From the IMG/VR virus record IMGVR_UViG_3300045988_007281: 42,841 nt of DNA; one strand, 5' to 3'. Shown piece by piece: positions 11,391 to 25,035 of this stretch (position 1 is its first letter; every line of letters starts with the position of its first letter). The notes under the pieces are model-generated. The model searched no databases, was not told the DNA's origin, and worked only from the letters and a program-made list of their open reading frames with translations. The DNA is from a virus. Made by a program: the position numbers and the translations under genes.

Positions 11391-11718
11391 AGACAAGACC
11401 CAAGCAAATCAACGCTTGCGCCAATGCTAATGTGTTTCTCGCAAATTCATAGTAGCACAAACAGTAAACAATTTCAACAACAAATTTCAAAAGTTGACTG
11501 CGGCGAAAAGAAAAGCCGCCCGTGGTTCGTTCACGAGCGGTTTCCCCCAGAGTTGTTTACCAGAACGCGCTGCACAGGATGGTCGTCTGCATTACTTCGC
11601 ATCCGTCCGAATTGGTAGAGTTCTTTCCACCGGCTTGGCAATGCCATCCTGACACAAAACGAACTTACGCTTCTATGACGCGCCGCTCACTTTGGCAGTT
11701 CTGGCGCTGCCCCTTGCC

Positions 11719-11775
11719 CTAACGCATCACGCCGTTTCTTTGGTCTGGAACTGGCAAGTTCAAAAGTTTGGTCAT
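11719..11775 (-). CDS. 18-codon upstream/leader ORF (MTKLLNLPVPDQRNGVMR)
   Basis: AGGAGG 7 nt upstream of ATG 11775, about 35 nt downstream of the minus-strand promoter at 11815-11844. Stops at TAG 11719-11721. Confidence 0.35.
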   Translation of the reverse strand: MTKLLNLPVPDQRNGVMR

Positions 11776-15491: not shown

Positions 15492-16331
15492 ATGGGAGAT
15501 AAAAAAGAATACGTCAAGCTGTGGCTGAGTTACAGGAGCTATTTCGAGGCGTACAGTGCTGCTGAGGTGGGGCGCTTGGTGCTGGCTGCGATGGATTATC
15601 GCGAGTCGGGAGCAGAACCAGAGTTCAGCGGGAATGAACGTTTCATTTGGCCTGCGATTCGACGGGACATTGACGAATCCGTAGCGGCGCAAAAAGCCGT
15701 CTCCGCATCCAGAAGTGAGGCAGGAAAGCAGGGCGGTCGGCCTGAATCCGAAAAAGCAAATGCTTTTGACGAAAGCAACGAAAAGCAAAAAAAGCAAATG
15801 CTTTCCGAGGAAAACAAAAAAAGCTATGGACAAAGGAAAAGGACAAAGGAAAAGGACATGGACAGTATTCTTTCCCCCCTTCCCCCCACACTGCGCGAAT
15901 CCGTTGAGAAATGGGTGGCATACAAGGGAGAACGGCGGGAGGAGTATAAGCCTGTCGGCCTGCAAAGCCTTGTTACGCAGATCACGAAAGCCGCAGAGGA
16001 ATATGGCGAGGCTGCAATGGTCGACGTGATAACCCGCTCTATGGCCGCAAATTACAAGGGGATCGTGTTTGACTGGCTGAAAGAGGCCAGCACACGCCCT
16101 GCGGCGCTCGGCCGCGCTGCAAAGCCCGGCTACGGCGCGCAGGGACACCATGACGAGCTGAACCCGCTGGAACGTGCAGCTGTGGACAGGGTGATGGGGC
16201 CGGTGTCAAAGGGCGCTGCCCGATTGCAGCAAGGCGTGCAGCGCCACGGGGACGAACTTGATGCGATCCAGCTGGAGGCGGTCGAGCGAATGCTTGCGGA
16301 AAACAAGGAGGACAAGGAGGACAAGACATGA
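15492..16331 (+). CDS. replisome-organiser-like protein (N- and C-terminal domains joined by a K/E-rich linker)
   Basis: N-terminal KLWLSYRSYFEAYSAAEVGRLVLAAMDY. C-terminal KWVAYKGERREEYKPVGLQSL..ANYKGIVFDWL. Linker DNA carries iterons. Confidence 0.55.
   Translation: MGDKKEYVKLWLSYRSYFEAYSAAEVGRLVLAAMDYRESGAEPEFSGNERFIWPAIRRDIDESVAAQKAVSASRSEAGKQGGRPESEKANAFDESNEKQKKQMLSEENKKSYGQRKRTKEKDMDSILSPLPPTLRESVEKWVAYKGERREEYKPVGLQSLVTQITKAAEEYGEAAMVDVITRSMAANYKGIVFDWLKEASTRPAALGRAAKPGYGAQGHHDELNPLERAAVDRVMGPVSKGAARLQQGVQRHGDELDAIQLEAVERMLAENKEDKEDKT
15752..15804. repeat. two copies of AAAAGCAAATGCTTT (near-palindromic), 38 nt apart
   Basis: 15752-15766 and 15790-15804, inside an A-rich stretch of the organiser gene. 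Confidence 0.7.
15828..15861. repeat. tandem 13-bp iteron GGACAAAGGAAAA x2 plus a partial third
   Basis: 15828-15840, 15841-15853, then GGACATGG. Confidence 0.7.
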
Positions 16332-16501
16332 GATTTGTTTGCGATTGCTGCAACGATCTGACGAACATCGAGGCTGACCGTATGGAGATTCAAGGCGACA
16401 AGCTGATGGTGTACAGCCGCGGGCGGCTGGTGTATGTGGCGGATCTCGGCCAGATCATGCTGGCGAAGCTGACGCCGACGGGAAAGGAAACAAAATGCTG
16501 A
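16328..16501 (+). CDS. small protein (57 aa)
   Basis: ATGA overlap with the upstream gene and overlap with the dcm start. MRFVCDCCNDL.. Confidence 0.45.
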   Translation: MRFVCDCCNDLTNIEADRMEIQGDKLMVYSRGRLVYVADLGQIMLAKLTPTGKETKC

Positions 16502-17364
16502 CGCATCTGAGCCTGTTTTCCGGGATCGGCGGGCTTGATCTGGCTGCCGAGTGGGCCGGATTTACGACCGTCGGGCAGTGTGAGTTTGCCGACTACCCGA
16601 CGAAGGTGCTGGAAAAGCACTGGCCGGACGTGCCGCGCTGGCGTGACGTCCGGACGTTGACAAAGGAGAGTTTTTATGAGCGGACAGGCCTACGAACAGT
16701 TGACGTTATTTCCGGCGGATTCCCCTGCCAGCCCTTCTCCGTGGCTGGAAAGCAAAAGGGCAAAGGGGATGATCGATACCTCTGGCCGGAGATGCTCCGA
16801 GTTATCACCGAGCTGCGCCCGCGTTGCGTTGTCGGTGAGAACGTACCTGGAATCATCAAGATTGCCGCCGGGCAGGTGGTCAAGGATTTGGAGCGTGCTG
16901 GCTATCACGTCGTCGTGTTTAATTTTGAGGCTGCGGCTGTCGGAGCTTGGCACAGACGGTCCAGGGTATTCTTCGTCGGAATCGCAGATGTGGCCGACAC
17001 CGACGACAGTAGGCTGCACGATAGCATCAGAAAAGAGAATCAATTTGATTGCGGACGGGAAAACGACATTTGCAAGCAATCAGGGGGAGCGTGGAGGCTT
17101 ATCCAATCTGCGGGAGCACGTGCTTGCGCGGACGAAAGGCTTGTGGACAACGCCCTGCGCAGCGGATGCGCAGGGATCGCACGGCGGAAACAATCACAGG
17201 AGCTTGCGGACGGACGTTGCTGGACAGCTGAACCCGATGTGGGTCGAGTGGCTCATGGGATTCCCGCTAGGGTGGACAGACTTAAATGCCTCGGAAACGC
17301 TGTAGTGCCGCAGCAGGCATACCCGATTTTCCGGGCGCTGGCGGAGGAGCTAAACAGATCATGA
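16495..17364 (+). CDS. dcm: DNA (cytosine-5) methyltransferase
   Basis: Motifs FSGIGG (I), GGFPCQPFS (IV), GENVPG (VI), HRRSRVFFVG (VIII), LGNAVVPQQ (X). The stretch between VIII and X is low-complexity in this frame. Confidence 0.8.
   Translation: MLTHLSLFSGIGGLDLAAEWAGFTTVGQCEFADYPTKVLEKHWPDVPRWRDVRTLTKESFYERTGLRTVDVISGGFPCQPFSVAGKQKGKGDDRYLWPEMLRVITELRPRCVVGENVPGIIKIAAGQVVKDLERAGYHVVVFNFEAAAVGAWHRRSRVFFVGIADVADTDDSRLHDSIRKENQFDCGRENDICKQSGGAWRLIQSAGARACADERLVDNALRSGCAGIARRKQSQELADGRCWTAEPDVGRVAHGIPARVDRLKCLGNAVVPQQAYPIFRALAEELNRS
16676..17305 (+). other. 209-codon ORF in the +1 frame entirely inside dcm, carrying MTase-TRD-like motifs
   Basis: Own AAGGAG SD 7 nt upstream of ATG 16676. 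Its C-terminal half reads MWPTPTT..LWTTPCAADAQG..QLNPMWVEWLMGFPLGWTDL. Confidence 0.3.
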
Positions 17365-22093: not shown

Positions 22094-22142
22094 GAAAGAA
22101 TGAGGTGGCTGGCCGGTGATCGGGCTTGATGGGGAGGACAAC

Positions 22143-23336
22143 ATGGAGGTAAAAAACAGAAAGCTTTCCAGCATTACTGCATACGGGAAAAATGCGAAAA
22201 AGCATGACAAGACGCAAATCAACAACGTTGCGGAGAGCATCAAGCAGTACGGTTTTGTGCAGCCGATTGTGATTGACCGTGACGGCGTGATCGTAATCGG
22301 GCATTGCCGCGCTTTGGCGGCAAAGAAGCTGGGTATGGAAGAAGTGCCTTGCGTCTGCGTGGACGATCTGACACCGGAGCAGGTGAACGCCCTGCGGCTG
22401 GTGGATAACAAGAGCAACGAGAGCGATTGGGACTTTGACCTGTTGGCTGATGAACTGCCCGGTCTCGACCTGTCGGCGTTTGACTTTGAATGGGGTCTGC
22501 GTGATGAACTGAACGATTCCGTTGTCGAGGATGATTATGAACCTGTCATTCCGGCGGAGCCGAAGAGCAAGCTTGGCGATGTGTACCAGCTTGGAGACCA
22601 CCGCCTTATGTGCGGAGACAGTACATCTCTGACTGATGTACAAAAGCTTGTGGGGGGGGCACAAATCGATTTGCTCCTTACCGACCCTCCGTACAATGTG
22701 GACTATCAGGGCACCGCCGGTAAAATCAAGAACGATAACATGGAAGATGCAGCCTTTAGGCAGTTCCTGACGGATGCATTCTCCAATGCGACGATGGTTA
22801 TGAAACCCGGCGCTCCGTTTTACATTTGGCATGCAGACAGTGAAGGGTATAACTTCCGTGGCGCGTGTAAAGATTCAATGCTGCGCGTCCGGCAGTGCCT
22901 GATTTGGGTAAAGAATTCCCTCGTAATGGGGAGACAGGATTTCCAGTGGAAACATGAGCCTTGCCTGTACGGTGAAAGCGAAATTGAAGAGGACGCGCAT
23001 GAGCCTTGCCTTTACGGATGGACGGAAGGCAAGAAGCACTACTTCTTCAAGAACCGCAGGCAGACAACTGTTCTGAATTTCGATAAGCCTGTCAAATCTG
23101 CGGAGCATCCGACCATGAAGCCGATTAAACTGTTCGACTACCAGATGCAGTGCTCCAGTAAGCCGGGAGAGAACGTGCTCGATCTGTTCGCTGGCTCCGG
23201 CACAACGATCATGGCAGCGGAGCAGAATGGCAGACACGCTTTCTGCATGGAGTACGATCCGAAGTATGCCGATGTCATTGTTGACCGGTGGGAGAAGTTT
23301 ACGGGGAAGAAAGCGGTGTTGCTGAATGACGATTGA
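22143..23336 (+). CDS. ParB-like N-terminal domain fused to an N6A/N4C DNA methyltransferase (beta class)
   Basis: GGGGAGG upstream of ATG 22143. ParB-type IVIDRDGVIVIGHCRALAAKKLG. MTase motifs TDPPY (IV) and DLFAGSGTT (I). Confidence 0.8.
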   Translation: MEVKNRKLSSITAYGKNAKKHDKTQINNVAESIKQYGFVQPIVIDRDGVIVIGHCRALAAKKLGMEEVPCVCVDDLTPEQVNALRLVDNKSNESDWDFDLLADELPGLDLSAFDFEWGLRDELNDSVVEDDYEPVIPAEPKSKLGDVYQLGDHRLMCGDSTSLTDVQKLVGGAQIDLLLTDPPYNVDYQGTAGKIKNDNMEDAAFRQFLTDAFSNATMVMKPGAPFYIWHADSEGYNFRGACKDSMLRVRQCLIWVKNSLVMGRQDFQWKHEPCLYGESEIEEDAHEPCLYGWTEGKKHYFFKNRRQTTVLNFDKPVKSAEHPTMKPIKLFDYQMQCSSKPGENVLDLFAGSGTTIMAAEQNGRHAFCMEYDPKYADVIVDRWEKFTGKKAVLLNDD

Positions 23337-23431: not shown

Positions 23432-23770
23432 ATGGCAAGGCCAAGAAAGGAAATAGATCAAAAACAGTTTGAGAACTTATGCGGCCTGCAATGCACGCTT
23501 GAGGAAATCTGCGGTTGGTTTGGTGTGACTGATAAAACACTGGATAGTTGGTGTAAACGCACCTATCATGCCAGTTTTTCCGAGGTATTTAAGCAAAAGC
23601 GAGGAGCGGGGAAAATTTCACTGCGCCGGAGCCAGTGGCGGCTTGCGGAAAAGAACGCGAGCATGGCTATTTGGCTCGGGAAGCAATACTTAGAGCAGCG
23701 TGATGAGCCAGAAGAATCGATTGACGTGGAGGATACGGACGCTTATCTGAAAGAAGCGGGTATCGAATGA
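23432..23770 (+). CDS. terS: terminase small subunit
   Basis: AAAGGAGG upstream. N-terminal HTH-like FENLCGLQCTLEEICGWFGVTDKTLDSW. Directly precedes terL, with overlap. Confidence 0.75.
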   Translation: MARPRKEIDQKQFENLCGLQCTLEEICGWFGVTDKTLDSWCKRTYHASFSEVFKQKRGAGKISLRRSQWRLAEKNASMAIWLGKQYLEQRDEPEESIDVEDTDAYLKEAGIE

Positions 23771-25035
23771 AAAGTTCGACAATCCACCCAGCGTTCGGGG
23801 ATAAGCATAAGGAATATATTAGAAATGCAACGCGCTGCATTATTTCTGTTGCAGAAGGTGCTGTTCGAGCGGGAAAAACCATCGACAATATAGCCGCCTT
23901 TGCAACGATGATAAACAAAGGCACGCCTGATAGAATCCATTTGGCGACCGGCTCCACAGCGGCGAACGCTAAGCTGAACATTGGAGACGCGAACGGATTC
24001 GGGCTTGAATATCTATTTCGCGGTCGGTGCAGATGGACGAAGTATAAGGGAAACGAGGCTCTTGTAATTAAATCCTGTGGGCGGGATTATGTAGTTATTT
24101 TTGCGGGCGGAGCGAAAGCGGACAGCTTTAAAAAAATACGCGGCAACTCATACGGAATGTGGATTGCAACCGAGATCAACCTTCACCATGAGGATACGAT
24201 CAAGGAGGCGTTCAATCGACAGCTTGCCGCAAAACTTCGACGTGTTTTTTGGGATTTAAACCCTTCGTCGCCTGGACACTGGATTTACCAGAATTACATA
24301 GACCGATTCCCGGAACAATTTGGAGCGCGGTATAATTACCGGCACTTTACTATCCGAGACAATGCAACGATTACAGCCCAAAGGCTTGCGGAAATCGAAA
24401 GCCAGTATGATATAAAAAGCATCTGGTATCGACGGGATATCCTTGGTGAGCGCTGCATTGCGGAAGGGCTTGTGTATCCGATGTTTGGCGATTCCTGCAT
24501 CGTGCAGGACATACCGGACACCGGCGATTATTACATTTCCATTGACTACGGCACGCACAATCCGTTTTCGGCTGGCTTGTGGTGCGTGACGAAAACGGAA
24601 GCGGTGCGAATCGGAGAGTATTATTACTGCGGGCGAGAAGAACGGAAAGAAAAAACGCCGGAAGAGTATTATTCAGAGGTCAAGCGCCTCGCAGGCGGGA
24701 GGGATATAAAATGCCTAATTGTAGACCCGTCGGCGGACGCTTTTATTGCCACCGTAAAGAAGCACCATGAGTTCAAAGTTCGTGGGGCTGTGAATGATGT
24801 ATTGCCCGGCATACAGACAACGGCTGAGATGATTGCGTCTGGGAAGCTCAAAATCCATGAGAGCTGCGAGGACGCCATCCGCGAATTCGGGCTTTACAGG
24901 TGGGACGAAAAAGCAGAATCTGACCGCGTCGTGAAGGAAAACGACCACACTATGGACGAAATCAGGTACATGGTGATGACGGCCTTGAAAAAACACTTCA
25001 AAGAACACAGATTTGTGCCGGAGCTGGCGCGGTGA
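23767..25035 (+). CDS. terL: terminase large subunit (PBSX/headful-type)
   Basis: Walker A-like AEGAVRAGKT. 422 aa. Followed by the portal gene. Confidence 0.85.
   Translation: MKSSTIHPAFGDKHKEYIRNATRCIISVAEGAVRAGKTIDNIAAFATMINKGTPDRIHLATGSTAANAKLNIGDANGFGLEYLFRGRCRWTKYKGNEALVIKSCGRDYVVIFAGGAKADSFKKIRGNSYGMWIATEINLHHEDTIKEAFNRQLAAKLRRVFWDLNPSSPGHWIYQNYIDRFPEQFGARYNYRHFTIRDNATITAQRLAEIESQYDIKSIWYRRDILGERCIAEGLVYPMFGDSCIVQDIPDTGDYYISIDYGTHNPFSAGLWCVTKTEAVRIGEYYYCGREERKEKTPEEYYSEVKRLAGGRDIKCLIVDPSADAFIATVKKHHEFKVRGAVNDVLPGIQTTAEMIASGKLKIHESCEDAIREFGLYRWDEKAESDRVVKENDHTMDEIRYMVMTALKKHFKEHRFVPELAR

Follow-up and report, generated by a model that had tools for sequence, protein, structure and literature searches.

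A cytosine methylase gene (dcm) on a phage-like sequence from the IMG/VR collection, IMGVR_UViG_3300045988_007281, contains a second long open reading frame (ORF) nested entirely within it. Here, the window denotes the whole stretch of DNA analyzed, approximately 43 kb (42,841 nucleotides); alpha denotes the frame-1 ORF of the gene, and beta denotes the ORF in the +1 frame. We consider it likely, with a probability of about 0.75, that the locus specifies a two-polypeptide DNA (cytosine-5) methyltransferase (C5-MTase) of the M.EcoHK31I type, in which alpha is the catalytic chain and the nested beta supplies docking, target recognition, and motif IX. More tentatively, and at somewhat less than even odds, we propose that alpha and beta represent a large, ancient phage and prophage family of such enzymes, in which the nested ORF is a complete, exchangeable specificity subunit composed of an N-terminal docking domain, swappable and perhaps multiple target recognizers, and a C-terminal motif IX.

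Two Overlapping Reading Frames

Alpha spans positions 16495–17364 (289 amino acids); it and all other features of the gene lie on the plus strand. By its motifs I, IV, VI, VIII, and X, which the initial annotation had listed and all of which were located, alpha is a C5-MTase catalytic core. Specifically, motif I (FSGIGG, residues 8–13, positions 16516–16533), for S-adenosylmethionine binding, lies inside the match to Pfam PF00145, and motif IV (GGFPCQPFS, residues 74–82, positions 16714–16740) contains the catalytic cysteine. Motif VI (ENV, residues 115–117, positions 16837–16845) and motif VIII (RRSRVFFVG, residues 154–162, positions 16954–16980) follow. Motif X (GNAVVP, positions 17293–17310, with LGNAVVP at residues 266–272) is invariant among relatives, and its HMMER alignment to motif X of M.HaeIII is weak. 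Alpha matches PF00145 over residues 3–170 (E = 1.6e-36), TIGR00675, and phrog_363 (2e-81), and it aligns with M.HaeIII and M.HhaI (PDB 1dct and 10mh) over motifs I–VIII with E of approximately 1e-13.

The large domain of a C5-MTase consists of motifs I–VIII plus X; the small domain consists of the variable region, that is, the target-recognition domain (TRD), together with motif IX (PMC3404938). In M.HhaI and M.HaeIII, one chain holds everything, with the TRD and motif IX placed between VIII and X, unlike the window locus, where the corresponding text is in the other frame, in a separate predicted protein. Alpha itself displays no such domain: the curated C5-MTase profiles (PF00145, TIGR00675, and many PADLOC models) cover it only to approximately residues 165–185, and the segment that follows is conserved no better than a noncoding frame. 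This variable region (residues 164–245, positions 16984–17229), which is open, unconstrained, and rich in G, R, E, S, A, and Q, is probably a disordered linker to motif X. Next comes EPDVGRVAHGIPARVDRLKCLGNAVVP (positions 17230–17310), made up of invariant alpha columns, which contains the lead-in to motif X and motif X itself and is dual-coded with the motif IX-like segment of beta.

Beta (positions 16676–17305, 209 amino acids) is the candidate second subunit. A Shine-Dalgarno sequence, AAGGAG (positions 16663–16668), stands 7 nucleotides before its ATG at 16676, and the +1 frame is closed by a TGA at 16658–16660, five codons upstream of that ATG. The beta stop at 17305 falls inside alpha motif X. 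The initial annotation had reported both ORFs with their coordinates and lengths, the 7-nucleotide spacing between the Shine-Dalgarno sequence and the ATG, and the motifs, and it was accurate in every detail checked.

Selection on Both Frames

An open +1 frame and its similarity among relatives could be a passive by-product of alpha conservation and codon usage, with no second product made. Indeed, part of the conservation of beta over motifs IV–VIII must follow from alpha; for example, the bases encoding motif IV read ADSPASPSP in the beta frame, so that DSPASPS is no more than GGFPCQPFS read in the +1 frame. We nonetheless strongly disfavor this explanation. When synonymous codons were shuffled within alpha, with the protein and the codon usage kept (20,000 trials), the +1 frame almost never remained free of stops: for the window the probability was 0.0001, for Paenibacillus phage Tadhana it was less than 5e-5 (0 of 20,000), and for Lacticaseibacillus phage R9.1 it was 2.5e-4. 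Under shuffling, a mean of 5.6 stops is expected in the +1 frame of the window. The +2 frame contains 12 stops in the window and 12–18 across the three phages. The half of the overlap that covers motifs IV–VIII has a stop-free probability of 0.0076 in the window and 0.001 in Tadhana. For the half between motifs VIII and X, the value in the window is 0.036, which agrees with the earlier rough estimate of a few percent for each frame.

Synonymous sites of alpha are specifically constrained within the overlap. We compared 2,373 pairs of diverse genes with alpha less than 60% identical and, at residues identical in alpha, asked how often the same codon was used. The same-codon fraction is 35% before the beta start and 39% after the beta end; inside the overlap it is 53% over motifs IV–VIII and 63% over the motif IX/motif X lead-in, and it reaches 0.95–1.00 at alpha G250, P257, and D261. 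The excess persists within the two-, four-, and sixfold degenerate classes (Mann–Whitney p from 3e-4 to 1e-7); at fourfold sites, the fraction is 0.54 inside versus 0.30 outside the overlap (p = 1.4e-7). Alpha Leu96 provides an example: a single codon is used in 73% of pairs, versus 16–22% for leucines outside the overlap, and the wobble base of the Leu96 codon sets the serine of the conserved TSG of beta.

Between motifs VIII and X, it is beta that is conserved and not alpha. The mean pairwise local alignment score over this stretch is 59.7 for the beta frame, 34.0 for the alpha frame, and 33.4 for the noncoding +2 frame, which bears out the earlier claim that the +1 frame carries the conserved text of this interval. 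Nucleotide diversity by codon position among 74 distinct close relatives provides a second view. Diversity is maximal at the alpha third codon position from 16495 to approximately 16960 and again past approximately 17254; from approximately 17143 to 17254 the maximum is at the alpha first position, which is the beta wobble position; and from approximately 16960 to 17143 all three positions are highly variable. In the LNPMWVEWLMGFPLGWT segment of beta, the beta wobble position is the most variable of the three. These patterns indicate that purifying selection acts on beta from end to end and does not act on the VIII–X segment of alpha; the alpha stretch behaves as a linker whose sequence beta dictates. 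Of the explanations offered in the initial annotation, the one supported by conservation, stop avoidance, and synonymous constraint is that dcm has a second protein overprinted on it. The comparison of homologous dcm genes that it had proposed revealed both synonymous-site conservation and stop avoidance in the overlap.

A Conserved Nested Architecture

The loci examined were gathered by similarity to alpha or to beta. A nested +1 ORF is present in all 167 of them (82 viral, 80 from genomes, and 5 distant alpha homologues), and also in phage K1G. Among the viral loci, which comprise 80 IMG/VR contigs with alpha 70–99% identical plus Tadhana and R9.1, both frames are open with beta at +1 in 82 of 82; beta length ranges from 195 to approximately 280 amino acids, and alpha length varies along with it. 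A scan with a beta profile, using one genome per species, produced 80 loci, and in each of them beta is in the +1 frame of an alpha ORF that contains C5-MTase motifs. Nesting is full in 72 of the 80, with the remainder cut by contig ends or broken. The 80 loci come from Oscillospiraceae and other Clostridia, Bacillus, and Paenibacillus (Bacillota), from Bacteroidota, Chloroflexota, Planctomycetota, Verrucomicrobiota, and Chlorobiota, from several proteobacterial classes (Pseudomonadota), from a candidate-phylum bacterium, and from others. The five distant alpha homologues, which were picked regardless of beta, also carry it: Lc-Nu ORF40, Lilo, mycobacteriophage Che9d gp80, Bacillus phage yong1, and phage C72C1. 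Matches in a plasmid tblastn search all lie under genes annotated as DNA cytosine methyltransferase. In every locus examined, beta resides inside a C5-MTase gene, and it is never free-standing. Judged from these comparisons, the nested architecture is ancient and widespread. Rather than homologues with scattered +1-frame stops and no motif conservation, the outcome that the initial annotation had named as contrary to its proposal, we find beta at +1 in all related loci examined.

The same comparisons bear on whether compensating indels, an assembly error, or a decaying pseudogene in this contig alone could account for the two frames. Genuine frameshift mutants do occur in the gene family: Mycobacterium phages OfUltron (locus L170, 359–1118), Jinglebell, Modragons, and Ochi17 have, relative to Che9d gp80, one T inserted after motif VI. 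The insertion disrupts alpha, which is annotated as two "DNA methylase" genes (75 and 76), as well as beta, making these phages natural knock-outs. In the window both frames are intact, and the same arrangement recurs in every related locus, across independent assemblies and the finished genomes of isolated phages. Thus, assembly error and compensating indels, which the initial annotation had listed, are excluded, and we regard the comparative data as having refuted this explanation.

In most genome records the nested ORF is unannotated, or is labeled simply "hypothetical," "Mte8-like," or a second "methyltransferase." Paenibacillus larvae phages have it annotated as a second "DNA-cytosine methyltransferase," and the genome paper is silent on the nesting. 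E. coli Kagunavirus phages carry the nested ORF as a "putative Mte8-like protein." One of them, Escherichia phage K1G (locus L168, 807–1631 and 895–1587), belongs to a proteobacterial subfamily with GEQV in place of ENV, and its annotated nested "Mte8-like" ORF begins upstream of motif I. In the literature collection searched, which is incomplete, we found no account of nested ORFs being general among phage methylases.

In clusters formed at 90% identity, beta has 2803 relatives. When 1.84 billion cluster representatives at 50% identity were searched, the matches numbered 16,713 for E<=1e-3 and 3,614 for E<=1e-10; the weaker of these matches may have only the C-terminal motif in common. Beta also matches phrog_1008 (1.2e-18), a family that seems to take in a variant in which beta is joined to motif X. 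In these variants (P0229, P0156, P0181, P0195, P0231, P0239, and P0246, and locus L134, 1797–2780), beta runs in frame into motif X: the LNP motif is followed by 25–40 residues and then by EP..IPRVA.G...RV.RLK.LGNAVVP, the IX-then-X order of canonical enzymes. Because beta continues in frame through motif X, the small chain of these variants bears both IX and X, as in M.AquI.

Start Signals and the Frameshift Alternative

The start region of beta is itself conserved. Most Clostridia-type loci have "aaaggag," a spacer of 7–8 nucleotides, and an ATG seven codons before the conserved QLTLFP. Among 69 diverse loci with a recognizable N-terminal motif, a start codon lies no more than 15 codons upstream of that motif in 67, and a Shine-Dalgarno-like core precedes a start in 57, versus 25% of random windows in the same genes. 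We infer that beta is translated independently, from its own Shine-Dalgarno sequence and the ATG at 16676.

Alternatively, the active enzyme might be one continuous 1-2-1 chain, produced through two programmed frameshifts, a +1 shift after motif VIII and a −1 shift before motif X; the initial annotation had placed these near 16975–16990 and 17275–17285. Such a composite reads as a complete, canonical C5-MTase, with motifs I–VIII, a recognition region, IX, and X in order, and rare database proteins (P0153, P0127, and P0253) do begin in the alpha frame and then pass into the beta frame. The signals that programmed shifting would call for do not accompany it: no X_XXY_YYZ slippery heptamer is present at 16900–17100 or at 17200–17305, and an Rfam search revealed no element at either proposed switch point. 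Nor is there a second shift site common to the family, as the end of beta relative to motif X differs by lineage; it lies inside the motif in the window and 78 nucleotides before GNAV in Tadhana, and in the beta+motif X relatives the frame reads on through. The fusion proteins are isolated database entries that illustrate how gene callers mix the frames, and they are probably products of mutation or of indels or sequencing errors in metagenome contigs.

Further, the Shine-Dalgarno sequence, ATG, and first 100 codons of beta would be useless to a 1-2-1 chain, yet they are conserved and selected. Selection on those codons would be pointless, because a frameshift after motif VIII would bypass them. 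Given the missing slippery sites, a first switch region that is hypervariable at all codon positions, the conserved beta start, and the selected N-terminal 100 codons, we judge double frameshifting very improbable as the route to the present enzyme. The 1-2-1 composite is a probable likeness of an ancestral single-chain enzyme and not of the present product.

Composition of Beta

Alignments of the beta family reveal three parts: an N-terminal domain, then one to approximately ten tandem (W/L)PTP.A.D units, then a near-invariant GGQLNP.WVEWLMGFP.GWTDL. In the window, the N-terminal domain (positions 16676–16975, approximately 100 amino acids) lies over alpha motifs IV–VIII. The evidence for it comes from alignments, AlphaFold2 (AF2) modeling, stop avoidance, and codon constraint, for which stratified p values range from 1e-7 to 4e-5; we propose that it docks onto alpha. 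Its conserved features are QLTLFP.DS, PGSE.A..MTVTSGRKC (with TSGR.C as the core), an amphipathic helix (residues 45–60), and a beta-hairpin (residues 68–90). The middle region (positions 16988–17227) possesses two PTPxAxD-type units, MWPTPTT at 16988–17008 and LWTTPCAADAQG at 17141–17176, which are proposed target-recognition modules. The stretches WPTPTT and LNPMWVEWLMGFPLGWTDL are both part of the beta sequence. The motif IX-like segment, LNPMWVEWLMGFPLGWT (positions 17228–17278), is nearly invariant in the family and overlaps the nucleotides of frame-1 EPDVGRVAHGIPARVDRLKCLGNAVVP.

The middle region is mosaic. Units are gained, lost, or swapped in multiples of 3 nucleotides, and the beta-frame motif is always kept. 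Eleven module combinations occur among related phages, nearly all pairs of which share at least 90% identity over alpha residues 1–160 and most of which share at least 95%, and 39% of phage pairs with alpha residues 1–160 at least 95% identical have beta middles less than 40% identical. A mosaic beta middle beside a near-identical alpha core is the pattern expected of a specificity determinant.

Two observations concern the C-terminal segment. The LNP..GWT segment alone (window 17228–17302) also matches phrog_26627 and phrog_27243, which are PHROGs with no assigned function, as well as small "DNA methyltransferase" PHROGs. In Tadhana (locus L001, 2120–2300), the alpha frame beneath the beta LNP motif reads SRLGGVLDGLSDWLDRYK, which resembles the lead-in to motif X in degenerate form, and the genuine EPARIETGVQNRVGRLKALGNAV comes next; the arrangement looks like a local duplication that parted the two overlapping motifs.

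Comparison with Known Enzymes

Fragments of C5-MTases can complement one another (PMC3404938), and two natural two-polypeptide enzymes are pertinent here. M.EcoHK31I, from E. coli HK31 (YGGCCR; Lee, Kam & Shaw 1995), is, in the accounts cited, a two-polypeptide C5-methyltransferase (PMC2836561, PMC3404938) whose beta coding sequence lies wholly inside that of alpha, in a different frame (PMC2836561). By those accounts, its beta bears motif IX and both chains are needed (PMC2836561, PMC3404938), and beta lacking at least 41 N-terminal residues loses its association with alpha (PMC2836561). Compared by this published description, the window locus is alike in several respects: beta is wholly inside the alpha gene in another frame, alpha possesses motifs I–VIII plus X, and there is beta sequence upstream of the motif IX-like segment, the part that matters for association in M.EcoHK31I (the window beta is predicted to be 209 amino acids long). 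Because the window locus and M.EcoHK31I share this anatomy, we propose the same division here, with the catalytic core and motif X in alpha and recognition and motif IX in a separate, docking beta. The two differ in setting: M.EcoHK31I is part of a restriction–modification system, and the window gene is a phage orphan located in a replication module. Our plasmid tblastn search returned no E. coli match.

M.AquI, from Agmenellum quadruplicatum (CYCGRG; Karreman & de Waard 1990), is described as a split C5-MTase (PMC3404938). Like the proposed enzyme, it has two subunits, the large one with motifs I–VIII and the small one with the distal variable region, IX, and X. Unlike M.AquI, in which X is in the small subunit and the ORFs are consecutive, the window locus keeps X in alpha, and its ORFs are fully nested. 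The beta+motif X relatives (P0229, P0246, and L134) are closer to M.AquI than the window is. Reviews treat two-polypeptide C5-MTases, with M.AquI and M.EcoHK31I as the examples, as exceptions; in the family of the window, a nested second ORF is the rule.

Two further systems offer likenesses of arrangement. In the Bacillus phage C5-MTases SPR, phi3T, and rho11s, and in Type I HsdS, specificity comes from exchangeable tandem recognition modules. Similarly, PTPxAxD units in the window family differ in number and kind among near-identical phages. The likeness drawn is one of arrangement: SPR-type modules reside in frame in a single MTase chain, and HsdS belongs to a different enzyme class. The lambda genes Rz and Rz1 are fully nested, same-strand, +1-frame phage genes whose products work together. 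Unlike Rz/Rz1, which have a different function, the overlap here is longer (630 nucleotides) and conserved across bacterial phyla.

Motif IX, Structure Prediction, and the Role of Beta

The assignment of the C-terminal segment of beta to motif IX is suggestive. The spacing LxPx6MG[FY]Pxx[WY] of beta fits residues 274–289 of M.HhaI, LNPMWVEWLMGFPLGW versus LHPRECARVMGYPDSY (M.HhaI sequence from PDB 10mh), and the GFP..W element, to which the initial annotation had drawn attention, resembles motif IX. When the beta profile was run against M.HhaI with hhalign, the single hit fell on motif IX, residues 266–290, at a nonsignificant E of 0.18. Against an M.HhaI-family profile, which is shallow because only orthologues at least 71% identical were retrieved to build it, the motif IX hit had E = 0.077, again not significant. 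The beta+X profile hit M.HhaI motif X, residues 296–309, likewise without significance. Since none of the hhalign hits is significant, we take the assignment as suggestive only. Searches with reassembled chains added nothing: in Pfam, neither the 1-2-1 composite, nor a natural beta+X protein, nor C-terminal fragments extended PF00145 past residue 164, and phmmer of the composite against PDB gave no gain over alpha alone.

Several points weigh against a two-polypeptide enzyme with recognition in beta. Motif IX is assigned from a short pattern, with hhalign E = 0.08–0.18, and beta has no match in Pfam, NCBIfam, PADLOC, or a PDB sequence search (profile, E<=10). The AF2 model of beta alone, from a 42-sequence alignment, is of low confidence, with a mean predicted local distance difference test score (pLDDT) of 58.8 and confident regions only at residues 40–95 (pLDDT 69–84) and 187–194; Foldseek found no match for it in PDB at E<=0.001. 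AF2 of alpha yielded no usable model (pLDDT 30), because the homologues are too similar. With a low-confidence beta model, an empty Foldseek search, and an alpha pLDDT of 30, the proposed enzyme lacks structural support. In the window locus, the variable region of alpha is free of constraint and beta holds the conserved, modular text; for M.EcoHK31I, by contrast, the literature places the predicted TRD in alpha. Finally, the breadth of the design has to be read with the sampling in mind: because loci were gathered by similarity to alpha or beta, they do not give the share of all C5-MTase genes that are built this way.

A different notion is that beta is real and selected and is not a methyltransferase subunit at all, being instead a regulator, an anti-defense factor, or a DNA-binding protein overprinted on dcm. 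In its favor, searches of families and structures assign no function to beta, no relative of the N-terminal domain is recognizable, and, as noted, motif IX is statistically weak. In the examined loci, however, beta is never found outside a C5-MTase gene. Alpha, moreover, has no conserved TRD or motif IX of its own, and the conserved C-terminal segment of beta is positioned exactly at the place of motif IX, just before X, to which it is fused in frame in some relatives. M.EcoHK31I supplies a precedent for a subunit. On balance, we consider a function for beta outside the methyltransferase unlikely.

A Proposed Two-Polypeptide Phage Methylase

In the two-polypeptide model, alpha would provide the catalytic large domain: motifs I–VIII, followed by the unconstrained linker, followed by the motif X helix. 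Beta, made separately in the +1 frame from its own Shine-Dalgarno sequence and the ATG at 16676, would dock onto alpha through its ~100-amino-acid N-terminal domain. Its PTPxAxD module or modules would form the target-recognition region, and its LNPxWVEWLMGFPxGWT segment would serve as motif IX. Together, alpha and beta may assemble into an orphan phage methylase that shields phage DNA from host restriction, and nesting would guarantee that the two are inherited and transcribed together. By analogy with M.EcoHK31I, we infer that beta is translated, binds alpha, and holds both the TRD and motif IX, and that activity depends on the two chains together. As for origin, we speculate that the VIII-to-X segment of an ancestral single-chain enzyme fell out of frame and was rescued by upstream initiation, and that the N-terminal extension of beta was later recruited for docking.

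The nested, two-in-one design is known from one E. coli enzyme. What appears to be new is its commonness, its age, and its under-annotation in phage and prophage methylase genes: the family extends to 3,614 clusters at 50% identity (E<=1e-10), spans many phyla, and includes the well-studied phages Che9d, Lc-Nu, and K1G. If beta is the recognition subunit, predictions of specificity made from the annotated protein alone are bound to fail for these orphan phage methylases, and alpha cloned alone would yield an inactive enzyme. The mosaic beta middle would then constitute a natural library of recognition modules. Shuffling of those modules would let phages retarget methylation with the catalytic core untouched, much as HsdS does in Type I systems, and the literature's assignment of the M.EcoHK31I TRD to alpha would have to be reconsidered. 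If the model is true, the dual-coding overlap of approximately 200 codons would put this pair among the longest overlapping genes of prokaryotic viruses and among the most widely conserved. The locus offers a clean, deeply conserved test case for the selection of two proteins in one DNA sequence.

Genomic Surroundings

The alpha/beta gene is located among genes for a Sak4-like annealing protein and SSB, a methyltransferase with a ParB domain, and the large terminase, in the order Sak4-like, SSB, alpha/beta, ParB-domain methyltransferase, terminase. Immediately upstream, a 57-amino acid Cys-rich ORF (window 16328–16501, plus strand; MRFVCDCCND...) has a stop that overlaps the alpha start (ATGCTGA), and it has no PHROG match. 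The second DNA methyltransferase (22116–23336, plus strand), unrelated to the first, has an N-terminal ParB-like domain (phrog_498, 1.7e-153) and lies directly upstream of the large terminase gene (23767–25035). Thus, the phage has at least two orphan methylases. On the minus strand, positions 11510–11726 contain a full-length Rfam FuFi-1 RNA (RF02986), scoring 100.6 bits versus a gathering score of 59.6.

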